Source: Euglena gracilis
Lineage: Eukaryota
Direction of reading: 5' to 3'
Assembly: GCA_039621445.1 (NCBI GenBank)
Contig: CP154954.1
Coordinates: forward strand, 2,046,001-2,110,000
Length of the DNA stretch: 64,000 nt
Shown: one piece after another, positions 8,413 through 58,037 of the stretch
Position numbering within the stretch: position 1 is the stretch's first letter
Layout of the letters: every line of letters starts with the position of its first letter
Made by a program: the position numbers and the translations under genes
The notes under the pieces: generated by a model
What the model saw: only the letters and a program-made list of their open reading frames with translations
What the model was told of the DNA's origin: nothing
Databases searched by the model: none

Positions 8413-9323
8413 GCGTGGTCAGCCGACTCAAAACCTCGGCACGCAAACCCGTCCTGAATCCAAAAATCAGCAAATTCCAACGTTGTTTGCGTCAAAACCA
8501 GGGGTTTTTTTTAAGGATATATTGGGATATTGGGATATACTTTTCGGCGCCAAAGGCGCCGAAAAAAGTGCTATTTTTAGCACTTTTCGCGATTTTTCGG
8601 CCATTTTTTGTGGGTCCCCCGGGGGGCCCCCTAGGGGCCCCCCCAGGGGGCCCCTAGGAGGTGGGTGGGTGGGGGGGACCCCCCCCTCCCCCCTGGCACC
8701 CCCCCGGGGGTCCACGACTAAAAAAAAACCCCTGGTCAAAACGTGTTCGGAGGGACAGAAGTTCCCAGGTGTCGTCCGTTGAGCAGCTTCCGTGGCACGC
8801 ACCCCTCTTTCACGTTTGAGCACCGGGGCAGCAAATTCATTCCGCAACGTAAATTGACGATCCACGAAGGCAGGCAAGACAATTTTTGGGACCGTTGCAT
8901 TGTACGCCCTCATCATGCCGTTCACATAACTTCGCCAGGAGTCTGCAGAAAGTTCTTTTAGTGAGAAGTTCTGTGTGGCCCGCTGTTGTTTGCAACTTTT
9001 CACGTCAGCCTCATCGTCAAACAAATACACCGGAAAAATGGTGCGACGAGCCCAACCTCGCAAATATTCGTCCAACGAGTCATATTTTAACCCGTTATCC
9101 TCACAAAAATCGACAAAAGTCAGAAAATGCAGGATGCCGGATCGTTGACGCCTTGCGCTCCGGAAAGTCTCTTGGTTTCTTTCTTAGCAAACAAGGGGCC
9201 GTTCACCGGGTCATCTGCCTCCTGCTTACCGCCCTCAGAAATTTTGCGGATCGCAGCAACAAATTCTTCAGGGGGCGGAGGTTTCAGTCCGGCCAACACC
9301 ACAAGGTTCGCCCGTTTAGCCAT
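8395..9323 (-). pseudogene. Tyrosine-recombinase-like (Crypton/DIRS-type) N-terminal region: frameshifted, MITE-interrupted, truncated
   Basis: ATG at 9323, frameshift near 9185, then ...ILHFLTFVDFCEDNGLKYDSLDEYLRGW...LSADSWRSYVNGMMRAY (core-binding-domain-like). After removing the 8499-8734 MITE it continues EHVLTQTTLEFADFWIQDGFACRGFE (box-I-like R at ~8437). Family call is by eye only. Confidence 0.5.
8499..8734. mobile_element. hAT-like MITE
   Basis: TIR CAGGGGTTTTTTT/AAAAAAACCCCTG; perfect 8-bp TSD GTCAAAAC (8491-8498, 8735-8742). Confidence 0.92.
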
Positions 9324-9372
9324 TAAGAACAACTGAGGACAAGAAGAACATATCACCATCAGCAAAGAGCAA

Positions 9373-9580
9373 ACAATTTCCAAGACAGGGATCCGTTAGT
9401 GTAAAACGATTTCCAAGGCAGGGATCCGTTAGTGTAAAACGATTTCCAAGACAGGCGACCGTTAGTGTAAAACGATTTCCAAGACAGGGATCCGTTGGTG
9501 TAAAACAATTTCCAAGACAGGGATCCGTTAGTGCAAAACGATTTCCAAGACGGCGTACGTTTTCTTGAGAAAAATGACAA
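9373..9580 (+). repeat. 33-bp tandem repeat (~5.5 copies)
   Basis: Head-to-tail CCGTTAGTGTAAAACGATTTCCAAGACAGGGAT with no spacers. Confidence 0.9.
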
Positions 9581-54800: not shown

Positions 54801-57800
54801 CTTCCCAGCTGGGCTGGGATCCACACCCTGTGGTGGGTCCGCTGAAATAAAATTTGGGCCAAACCAGCGAAGCCAGGCAGTAACGATAACGTTTCGGCGC
54901 AAAGCCTCAAAATTTTTGGAGACATGGGTCAAAAGTAGCCTAAAAAGTGGTTTTCCAGGTGCTTTTTGAGTTTTTACCTCCTGATTTTGAGGGGAAAAAT
55001 GGCAACGCATCTCGATTTTTGCTTTTGGGGGGTACATCTTGGGTACCTGCCGGATGCTCAACCTCACAGGACCCGGGGGGTGATTCAGCCTGCACTTTTC
55101 TTCCCCCCAGCCAGCAACTTTTTCCAGGTGGCCCACAGTATTTTTATTTCTTTTTGGCTTATTTCCACCTTAGAGCCTGTGGCTACCGTGACCCACAGTT
55201 CGTTCCCGTGTTCTTTGTCACTTCCCTTCTTCCTCTTGCCCTGCGCAGGCAACGCCATCGGGCCGGAGGGCGCCAAAGCGTTGGCGGAGGCCAGGGCTGC
55301 GCTTCTGAATGGGGGAAGGTTGCCACACACCCGGGGGTAGGGGAAGTGTTGGGGCGGTGGGGGAATGGTCAGCGTTGGGGATGGGGCTGCCGCGTCAGGG
55401 GCACCAAACCACACACCCAACCCTCCCCAAGGTGTGTGGGGGTGTGGGGTGTGGGGGTGAGAAGCGGAGGGCTGGCCCCGGCTCTCCGGACTAACGCCAC
55501 GCTGCAGGAGGTGGACCTCGGCTGTATGCCCCCTCCCCTCCCGTCCCGTTCCGTGGGGTGTTTCTCTCCACCGCGATGGGCCAGTGCTGTGAAAAGGAAC
55601 CGCCGCCACAAACCCCCCGTCGGCCCAAGGGCTGTGTGAATCGCTCGGCGTGGTTGGGTTGTTGTCGCTGGGTCTCGGCCATTGGTCCCCAGTCACGGCA
55701 CGCGTCACCCCCCACCCCACTCACCTGGGTGTGGTGCCCCCGCCCGTCTCGTCCGGGCGGTGCTTCATGCGGCGTGGAGTGGGGGGTTTCTCTTGATGGT
55801 TAATTGTGTCCTGAGTGCTTGCGGTGTACTGGGGGATCAGGCCCAAGGATTAGCCGAGCTATGTAGCTGACCAAAGTTACACCCAAATTTTGCTGCCTCA
55901 TTTTTGATATGTTTTTTTTGAAATTTGAAAATATATCTGAAATTCAGCAAAATGAGTAGATTTTCAACATCAAAAGCAGCCTTTAAACTGCCCTGTCTAA
56001 CCATATTTTGGTTTCAGTGTAAAGCCGTAATTAAATTCATCAAGCATTTTTGCTGGAATTTGATGTATTTTGCTTCATTTTTGAAATTGTTGGCATTTCG
56101 CTATTTTGCGGCTTAAATACAGTGATTACTCGGGCCAGGTGAGGAATTATGGGAGCCCTCATGGGACGCAGTTTTTATTCTCCCCCGCTTCCTGCGGTCC
56201 CGCCCATCCCAAGCTCTGGCGTGTTTGCGACACCAAACAGTGCTGCAAGCTCCCCACTCTACCAGTCTCGTCCATCCAGTCTTTGGGCCGACAAAAACTG
56301 TTTTGTGCAGTCTAGTTTGGGACGTTTTTTCCTTGGTCCCATCATTACAAAATGCCGAATAACTCGGAAATTAAGCAGAATCAAGCAGAATGTCCGGATA
56401 TCCAAATTGGAACCTTAAAGATGCCCAACTAAACTGTTTTTTATTGCCCCTTTCCCCTCCCTCTGCCACCTGCTGTCCGGCACGTAGGCACCGGCATTGG
56501 GGACGAGGGGACCGTAGCGTTGGCGGTGGCCAGGCCTGCGCTTCAGCGATGTCATCCCCCTCCCCTGGGGGTGTCGGGGTGGATGGGGCACAGGAAGGCC
56601 TGGGCGGCCGGTGAGGGGCGGGTGGAGGCGGTGCCGGCCGGCCGCTGCCAAGGCAGAGGGGAGGGGCCGGGTGGGAGTGGGGGCTGCCGAGGGCCCGGCC
56701 CATCCGCTGGAGAGAAGGGCTATCAGTAAGCAGACCCCCCATGGCTGGTGTGGCACTGTGGGGTGGGGGTGGGTTGGGGAAGCGAAGGGGTGGCCCCGGC
56801 GCTGCGGACCAACTCCGCGTTGCAGAAGGTGGACCTCCACTGTATGTCCCCTCTCACGTTGGTGCATTGACGTGACGGGGAGGTGCCGTTGCAAAACAGT
56901 TTGTGTTGAAATGGTATCGATCCTATTTTCCACCACCTGCCATTGTGGGGTGGGGATCCAATGTGGTACCGTCGGATTCCAGCCAGCAGGATTGAGGGGG
57001 GGGGGAGGCTGATCCATGTTTGAGGACATGGAACATTGCAATGCCTGTGGTAGTTTATCGCACCAAACCCTCCCTATCCCGTTTTTTTTTGTTTCATTGT
57101 GCTGAAAGGGGTATTTGTCCCCACATTTTCAGCAAAGCACCTGCTGAATTGCACAAAGCACTGTGAGCGAAGTGACTCGTGTGTGACACAACACCCTCCC
57201 ATCAAAGCGAGGAGATGAAGCCTGCAGAACCTCGGAGGTGTATTTTGGTTACGAAAGGATCATTTTTTTTACTGCAACAAACATTGCAGATGAATACTTT
57301 GGGTTTTCTTGAGCCGGAGGTGACCCTACCCGAGGGGGGGTCCAGACTGCCAGTAACTTTTTTCCAGTCATCACCTCCCAGCTGGGCTGGGATCCACACC
57401 CTGTTGTGGGTCCGTTGGGATACAGTTTAGGCCAAGCCAGCGAAGCCGGGCAGTTACCGATAATGTTTTCAGCGCAAAGCCACAAAATTTTGGAGAAAAG
57501 GGTCAAAAATGGCCAAAAAGTGTTTTTTAGGTGCTTTTTGAGTTTTCACCTCCTGATTTTGCTTAAAAATGGCAACGCGGCTCGATTTAGGTTTTTTTGG
57601 GGGGACTTCTTGGGTACCTGTCCCCCCAGCCAGCAACTTTTTCCAGCTGGCCCGCAGTTTTTGTCTGTTTTTGCTTATTTCCACCTTAGAGCCTGTGGCT
57701 ACCGTGACCCACAGTTCGTTCCCGTGTTCTTTGTCCCTTCCCTTCTTCCCCTTGCCCTGCGCAGGGAACTCCATCGGGTCGGAGGGCGCCAAAGCGTTGG

Positions 57801-58037
57801 CGCAGGCCAGGGCTACGCTTCTGAACGGGGGAAGGTTGCCACACACCCGGGGGTAGGGGAAGTGTTGGGGTGGTGGGGGAAGGGTCAGCGTTGGGGATGG
57901 GACTGCCGCGTCAGGGGCACCAAACCACACACACCACCCTCCCCAAGGTGTGGGGGTGTGGGGTGTGGGGGTGAGAGGCGGAGGGCTGGCCCCGGCTCTC
58001 CGGACTAACGCCACGCTGCGGGAGGTGAACCTCAGCC
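51806..58037 (+). CDS. RI-like LRR protein (partial; right arm). Exons 51806-51849, 52790-52829, 53021-53064, 55249-55288, 55480-55523, 56488-56527, 56798-56841, 57765-57804, 57994-58037
   Basis: ALRTNAALQKVNLRWNSIGSEGAKALAE ALRTNATLREVNLLGNAIGPEGAKALAE ALRTNATLQEVDLGCTGIGDEGTVALAV ALRTNSALQKVDLHWNSIGSEGAKALAQ ALRTNATLREVNLS; open frame across all junctions. Confidence 0.92.
52830..53020 (+). other. Nonconventional intron
   Basis: A|GGCCAGGGCTGCGCTTC...GAAGCGGAGGGCTGGCCCC|G; CAG at +4, CTG at -8, terminal stem; no GT-AG. Confidence 0.88.
55289..55479 (+). other. Nonconventional intron
   Basis: Same termini as 52830-53020. Confidence 0.88.
56528..56797 (+). other. Nonconventional intron (GTG variant at -8)
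   Basis: T|GGCCAGGCCTGCGCTTC...GAAGCGAAGGGGTGGCCCC|G. Confidence 0.8.
57805..57993 (+). other. Nonconventional intron
   Basis: A|GGCCAGGGCTACGCTTC...GAGGCGGAGGGCTGGCCCC|G. Confidence 0.88.

Follow-up and report, generated by a model that had tools for sequence, protein, structure and literature searches.

We analysed a 64,000-nt stretch of the Euglena gracilis genome (GenBank assembly GCA_039621445.1, contig CP154954.1, positions 2,046,001 to 2,110,000; hereafter the window, with coordinates counted from its first letter). [quoted passage not shown] The gene and the LRR units carry introns without GT-AG borders, known from euglenids as nonconventional introns, and the subject of this report is the relationship between the register in which these introns are cut and the target-site duplications of the MITEs. 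An original prediction, made from the sequence, had proposed that the two geometries match exactly, and that interpretation as a whole is partly supported by the results below.

MITE families and their target-site duplications

At least five MITE families, all non-autonomous cut-and-paste elements, that have CAG (or CAC)...CTG ends and 8-bp target-site duplications are found in the window (M1 to M5, Table 1). The duplications are 8/8 in four copies and 7/8 in two, and one more comes from comparison with an empty site. The ends of the elements were set by a fixed-register scan, outward extension of the inverted repeats having been dropped because it overshoots into the duplications. The four elements originally proposed (M1 to M4) lie at the coordinates given for them, three with 8/8 duplications and M4 with 7/8, but the M4 copy starts with CAC rather than with CAG as had been stated. 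Since a 3'-truncated relative of M4 starts with CAG, this is taken as the end of the family. The same four had been described as unrelated; pairwise BLAST of M1 to M5 indeed produced no alignment between families, but G/C-run palindromes are common to M1, M3, M4 and M5. A CAGGCT end is also common to M3 and M4, and further matches to this motif at 26098 and 32830 were rejected as having no convincing partner end. The candidate older element at 18847-19348 has ends that are complementary at 10/12 positions, or at 11/14 over 14 nt. When the 17-nt terminal repeat of M3 was compared with metagenomes, 71 loci were returned with one match each, and the longest similarity to M3 was 31 nt; these were discarded as chance matches and not MITE copies. 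A foldback element at about 1040-1840, with arms of (GGGTCGCGG)n-type repeats that are 86-90% complementary over 130-160 nt, was likewise rejected as a member of the MITE class, as its ends are not CAG...CTG.

In the window, 177 CAG...CTG pairs have ends complementary at 10/12 positions or more, and three of these are flanked by an 8/8 repeat where approximately 0.003 would be expected; the flanks of the others agree at 7/8 in one, 6/8 in three, 5/8 in four and lower in 166. A register-fixed scan that covered duplication lengths of 4-12 bp gave 17 matches at 8 bp, comprising four independent MITEs, one copy arising from a tandem duplication and 12 artefacts (seven palindromic words in long inverted repeats, one foldback near-palindrome, two from tandem repeats and two of low complexity). 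The lengths 7 bp and 9 bp yielded one match apiece, neither of them convincing, and over the range 5 to 12 bp no convincing element with a duplication length other than 8 was found in the window. With palindromic words excluded, 10 matches remained (the four independent MITEs, the tandem-duplicate copy and five repeat artefacts), whereas 29 of 30 block shuffles treated in the same way gave none and the other gave one, equivalent to 0.03 per shuffled window.

A direct test of the duplication is provided by M3b, an M3-family copy nested in an intron of one LRR unit, because paralogous units retain the empty target site. The empty sites read ...ACTCC CACCCGGC CCCTCC..., with one octamer, while the sites filled by M3b and its mirror copy M3c read ...ACTCC CTGCCGGC (CAG...CTG) CACCCGGC TCCTCC..., with two. 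The intron that hosts M3b is 635 nt long, compared with 270 nt in the paralogue, and the difference is 357+8. The LRR paralogues that lack the insertion thus prove the 8-bp duplication directly, and the MITE anatomy in the window is real.

Nonconventional introns in a transcribed gene and in the LRR units

RNA reads were mapped over 8400-25400, using two raw RNA runs (X16 and X20), RNA contigs (X1) and DNA-like contigs (X15); the joints considered here are the 15 listed out of 484 in this region. Five of them define a gene on the plus strand with exons ending at 16699 and then spanning 19439-19487, 20244-20304, 22400-22449, 22580-22836 and 24500 to about 24635. Each joint is supported by 57-114 reads in X20 and by 4-25 in X16 and is present in one X1 contig, but none is found in X15, whose unspliced contigs span the joint sites. 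The joints are therefore RNA splices and not deletions in DNA. Two are conventional and three, I2, I4 and I5, are nonconventional. Hairpin-type non-GT-AG introns such as these, verified in RNA, point to the window being euglenid nuclear DNA. The joined exons keep one open frame, from which it follows that I2 and I4 interrupt coding sequence whereas I5 falls in the 3' untranslated region (UTR).

The nonconventional introns of this gene differ in how their borders are arranged. I4 has the form N3-CAG...CTG-N5, with CAG at +4 to +6 and CTG at -8 to -6, and although its joint can slide by up to 2 nt the spacer sum of 8 is unchanged. No sliding is possible for I2 (AAA-UACACC...GGUGUG-AUUAC), so that its 3/5 cut is unambiguous; here a U-G closing pair replaces C-G. 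The cut of I5 is 3+4, its spacers adding up to 7, and it has UGA/UCA ends in place of CAG. It contains M5 together with a 793-bp tandem duplication (22932-24517, 99.7% identical), and the listed RNA joint uses the distal copy. Cuts 3 nt before CAG and 5 nt after CTG had been predicted for the non-GT-AG introns of the window: RNA reads show that I2 and I4 do lose their helix plus 8 nt, and that I5 departs from this at 3+4. The occurrence of 3/5 cuts in RNA is thus observed for I2 and I4.

The LRR units, of approximately 2.4 kb, lie in a large inverted duplication at 43500-58500, a palindrome centred near 50.5 kb in which the complementarity of the arms reaches 100% over 400 nt. Each unit has exons encoding 28-residue LRRs, which from their motif appear to be of the ribonuclease-inhibitor type, with a non-GT-AG intron inside and GT-AG-like introns between them. 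It had been claimed that the element plus 8 nt must be taken out of these introns if frame and repeat consensus are to be restored, and this proved true for all eight intron copies: with CAG...(C/G)TG and 8 further nt removed, ...LA.A continues in frame into LRTN... and one 28-residue unit results in 8/8. Because LRR-A and LRR-B occupy the same position and have similar ends (CAGGGCTGCGCTTC and CAGGCCTGCGCTTC), they are counted as one ancestral event.

Table 1. Positions and borders of the MITEs, target sites, gene and introns in the window.
Feature	Position	Strand	Length	Ends, flanks or joint	Context and support
MITE M1	8499-8734		236 bp	CAGGGGT.../...ACCCCTG; GTCAAAAC at 8491-8498 and 8735-8742, 8/8	
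MITE M2	21696-22035		340 bp	CAGACTTTCA...; duplication AAGGGGTG, 8/8	within GT-AG intron 20306-22400
MITE M3	24787-25221		435 bp	17/17 terminal inverted repeat CAGGCTTTTGCTTAAGG; duplication GTCCGGAT, 8/8	downstream of probable 3' ends of the transcribed gene
MITE M4	17866-18181		316 bp	CAC...CTG in this copy; flanks TCATTGAG/ACATTGAG, 7/8	within GT-AG intron 16700-19438
M4 relative, 3'-truncated	31434-31715	+		5' end CAGGCTGTATTTT	
MITE M5	22866-23336		471 bp	CAC...CTG; duplication GGCATATC, 8/8	nested 29 nt inside nonconventional intron I5
Candidate older MITE	18847-19348		502 bp	CAG...CTG; flanks CTCCAAGA/CTCCAAGG, 7/8	within GT-AG intron 16700-19438
M3b (M3 family)	49281-49637		357 bp	flanks CTGCCGGC/CACCCGGC	nested in LRR-B nonconventional intron
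M3c (M3 family)	51319-51676				mirror of M3b in opposite palindrome arm
Empty target site of M3b	44233-44240	+		single CACCCGGC	paralogous
Second empty target site	56666-56673	-		single CACCCGGC	paralogous
Transcribed gene	16338-24640	+			five RNA joints; open reading frame from MGQG, stop in exon 22580-22836
Conventional intron	16700-19438		2739 nt skipped	GT..AG	joint 16699>19439
Conventional intron	20306-22400		2095 nt skipped	GT..AG, cut +1	joint 20304>22400
I2, nonconventional	19488-20243	+	756 nt	AA..AC	coding region; joint 19487>20244; 99 reads X20, 24 reads X16, 1 RNA contig, 0 X15 contigs; both=0
I4, nonconventional	22450-22579	+	130 nt	GA..TT; GAA-CAGGCTTTT...ACAGCCTG-GTCTT	coding region; joint 22449>22580; 91 reads X20, 25 reads X16, 0 X15 contigs; both=2
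I5, nonconventional	22837-24499	+	1663 nt	TT..TA; UUC-UGAAGGGUGGAA...UUCCACCUUUCA-UUUA	3' UTR; joint 22836>24500; 57 reads X20, 4 reads X16; both=1
LRR-A intron	52830-53020	+		GGC-CAGGGCTGCGC...GGAGGGCTG-GCCCC, 3/5 register	reading frame and repeat unit
LRR-A copies	55289-55479, 57805-57993	+			paralogous; reading frame
LRR-A copies	45377-45564, 47822-48011	-			paralogous; reading frame
LRR-B intron	56528-56797	+		ends GTG, not CTG	homologous to LRR-A, same position
LRR-B copies	44109-44378, 49152-49786 (M3b nested)	-			reading frame and repeat unit

Other parts of the window are rich in repeats. Over 10668-16337, X15 contigs exceed the gene exons in depth by factors of hundreds to thousands, and this region is therefore taken to be made of highly repeated elements. 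Within it, a 112-nt segment at 14145-14256 has high RNA depth, and approximately 60-120 reads per side run from it into sequence outside the window in both raw runs; it has an open frame on the minus strand and a GTATGC donor, and is probably a fragment or paralogue of a well-expressed gene elsewhere. A non-coding repeat of approximately 1.9 kb, with no Pfam or Rfam match, occupies 35558-40600, 59068-64000 and 6254-7260; it forms tandem copies, with an inverted set at the window end, and the copy at 6254-7260 is 1 kb long and 97-99% identical. A C-rich low-complexity array of 1.5 kb lies at 42150-43700 (GC 0.78, GC skew -0.84), with a related G-rich stretch on the opposite strand at 12500-13450, and RNA reads end in long G runs there.

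Correspondence between MITE ends and the splice register

Knock-in experiments have set the code for euglenid nonconventional splicing as 5'-N3CDG-/-CH'GN5-6, followed by a purine (Nomura et al. 2025, PMC12501133). I4 and LRR-A conform to this code, and so do M1 to M3 in 5/6 orientation cases, although over all seven elements the figure is 8/14; I2 (UAC/GUG) and I5 (UGA/UCA, 3+4) depart from it in letter. In minimum-energy folds of I2 and I4 positions +4 to +9 pair with -6 to -11, and M1 to M3, when folded with 3 and 5 flanking nt, show the same pairing in both orientations. Terminal pairing is only partial in LRR-A, LRR-B, M4 and M5. In these respects the introns resemble those published from euglenids (PMC12501133; Milanowski et al. 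2014, 2016), whose features are CAG at +4 to +6, CTG at -8 to -6 and paired ends. I4 and the LRR introns share these features, I2 is in the same 3/5 register, and M1 to M3 with their flanks carry the full published signal. Unlike those introns, the MITEs of the window are multi-copy, have intact 8-bp duplications and lie mostly outside exons.

There is also some resemblance in sequence between an intron and a MITE family. Both ends of I4 are within two mismatches of the terminal 13-mer of M4. At this threshold the 13-mer has seven matches in the window compared with 2.0 expected, a number that was reached in 0/100 shuffles, and M4, its relative and I4 account for five of the seven with their ends. 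With the comparisons made taken into account, our rough estimate for this similarity is P=0.04.

If introns arose from elements with duplications, a relic might persist at their borders, and the flanks agree at 3/8 positions around I4, 4/8 around I2 and 5/8 around the LRR introns. The last of these had been read as a duplication relic in the original prediction; the matches are present, but they stem from one ancestral event and are not significant alone. Comparison of the flanking 8-mers, which had been suggested as a check, gave an excess when applied to the three independent introns of the window, but a weak one (12/24 matches against a null mean of 6.4, P=0.036).

The duplications themselves show a bias. 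Position 6, read in the direction of the transcript, is a purine in 11/14 orientations of the seven elements (post hoc, P=0.03). After splicing this would be the first exon base, and the bias fits the published purine rule; either a target preference or a survival filter could possibly account for it.

Origin of the nonconventional introns

These observations suggest a mechanism by which a MITE could become an intron as soon as it is inserted. On transcription of an element lying in an exon, its inverted ends would pair to form a helix closed by C-G, A-U and G-C. The nonconventional splicing machinery would then cut 3 nt upstream and 5 nt downstream of the helix and join the exons. Since 3+5=8, the piece removed would consist of the element and precisely one duplication copy, and the mRNA would read as it did before the insertion, whichever orientation the element has; as long as the duplication is intact, any split of the 8 nt restores the original exon. 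We infer that a fresh MITE would be spliced in this way and that MITEs are the ancestors of the introns. The CAG/CTG class of nonconventional introns most likely goes back to insertions of such elements into exons long ago, the duplications and interiors of which have since decayed. We put the probability of the explanation as a whole, in which MITEs together with 3/5 splicing give rise to introns, at about 0.7.

Several results weigh against it. Among the joints listed for 8400-25400, splicing of a duplication-bearing MITE was not seen: no joint spans M1 or M3, and no member of a MITE family lies in an exon in that region. All MITEs are located either in introns or in stretches that have no listed joint, with M2, M4 and the 18847 candidate inside GT-AG introns and M5 and M3b/c nested in nonconventional ones. 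Apart from their ends, the four independent nonconventional introns show no alignment to any MITE family, and I4 lies in a DNA contig of single-copy depth. The borders of I5 and I2 indicate that some nonconventional introns do not fit. The relic statistics come from three independent introns in one 64-kb window, and 7 of the 12 relic matches fall in the last three positions, where a splice-site preference could give the same result. Finally, no transposase domain was detected by Pfam in the 88 open reading frames (ORFs) that were scanned out of 112 of at least 120 aa, a set from which the low-complexity frames at 42-43.7 kb and some that overlap others were excluded. One weak Bin3 and one MORN_2 match were the only hits in these ORFs, and Rfam at gathering scores gave no matches.

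The order of cause could also have been the reverse, such that splicing of hairpin introns of some other origin came first, and only those MITEs that happened to match it (CAG...CTG, 8 bp) were harmless in a densely transcribed genome and so spread, mimicking introns. Every element with terminal inverted repeats and a duplication found in the window does belong to this one class, as a filter of this kind predicts. Moreover, I2 and I5 are spliced without CAG/CTG, so the machinery takes helices that are not MITE ends, and the purine bias at position 6 fits the exon-start rule. However, the removal of exactly 8 extra nt is left unexplained, as is the eight-nucleotide repeat at a newly gained intron (PMC4770533), and we consider this order of events improbable. 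It makes the same predictions for new insertions as does an origin of the introns from MITEs, and the two therefore differ only about the distant past.

We regard it as less probable still that the match is a coincidence, with the MITEs being ordinary transposons, the introns arising for example by double-strand-break repair or by decay of conventional introns, and the CAG/CTG ends and the sum of 8 having no common cause. CAG ends are frequent in DNA transposons, the verified introns here include no member of a MITE family and the relic is weak, and the eight-nucleotide repeat was itself taken as a mark of break repair by those who described it (PMC4770533). Against this, two independent features, the trinucleotide pair and the spacer sum, agree at once, the fold register is identical and the ends of I4 resemble those of the M4 family. 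An origin of the introns from MITEs remains our preferred explanation.

It is a separate matter which transposase family moves the elements. For the hAT label used in the original prediction, the sole basis is the 8-bp duplication together with the CAG ends. Like hAT MITEs, the elements have 8-bp duplications, short terminal inverted repeats starting with CAG and no coding capacity, at 236-471 bp; unlike them, they show the YARNG motif at some ends only: M1 has it at both, M5 and the 18847 candidate have it at one each, and M2, M3, M3b and M4 have it at neither. The target pattern of hAT elements is nTnnnnAn, and 2/7 of the duplications fit it. A Merlin-type (IS1595-like) transposase, or another superfamily that makes 8-bp duplications, is a possible but doubtful alternative to hAT. 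Merlin families with 8-bp duplications have been reported from E. gracilis itself (PMC8101967), and no report of hAT in Euglena was found in the literature searched. In contrast to the CAG starts seen here, however, conserved 5'-GG-3' ends are described for Merlin (PMC8101967), and an IS1595-type domain was not found in the window ORFs scanned. In addition, 8-bp duplications and YARNG ends are given as the hallmarks of hAT, and among the terminal repeats listed for that superfamily CAGGGGTCC... and TAGGCTTG... look like those of M1 and M3 (PMC3014272). The argument from splicing is independent of the superfamily.

Introns made by transposons are known from other eukaryotes. The introner elements of Micromonas and Aureococcus, as Huff and colleagues reportedly set out in 2016, and those of Amoebophrya (Farhat et al. 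2021, PMC7789003) are inverted-end transposons with a target duplication that turn into introns when they insert, since the element is removed along with one duplication copy. Those introners involve spliceosomal splice sites or repeats of 3-5 nt, in contrast to the 8-bp duplication and helix-measured 3/5 cuts considered here, and the euglenid machinery is thought not to be the spliceosome.

For euglenids, a MITE origin of the introns was suggested in 2014, when no transposable element was known from the group (PMC3935182). A strain-specific, newly gained intron in gapC of E. agilis was described in 2016 with eight-nucleotide direct repeats at its junctions (PMC4770533). A 2024 review depicts the introns as bearing terminal inverted repeats along with 'TSD-like' repeats (PMC11282704), and a diplonemid paper of December 2025 speaks, in the passages concerned, only of 'MITE-like' (PMC12621601). 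The 2025 study of the splicing code reports abundant junction repeats, with short direct repeats making 84.4% of E. agilis introns 'slidable', and describes where the introns came from as unclear (PMC12501133). Earlier publications accordingly already contain the idea of a MITE origin, the code N3-CAG/CTG-N5 and one young intron with an 8-nt repeat. The element families, the 8-bp length and the identity 3+5=8 were not found in the literature searched, outside which lay the supplements, including Table S3 of PMC4770533 and the datasets of PMC12501133, which may hold junctions. The finding is probably a further case of transposon-made introns, for which an explicit tie between 3+5=8 and real MITE families was not found in print.

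Where euglenid nonconventional introns come from, and why they are cut 3/5 from a helix, has been asked since the 1990s. Two results, the existence of real MITE families with the same ends and a duplication length in them equal to the spacer sum, would turn a 'MITE-like origin' into a numerical prediction. According to it, an element in either orientation should be removed together with one duplication, and removal should fail with a duplication of 7 or 9 nt. The idea would also account for a genome's tolerance of thousands of intragenic transposon copies. More broadly, there seems an even chance that nonconventional splicing in euglenids is a precise excision at the RNA level tuned to the 8-bp stagger of one transposase lineage, that any CAG...CTG MITE entering a transcribed exon becomes an intron at once whichever way round it lies, and that bursts of MITEs built most of the introns (72% in E. 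agilis). If so, the 3/5 rule for the spacers, the junction repeats that make introns 'slidable' and the purine rule for exon starts would all be traces of a duplicated target.

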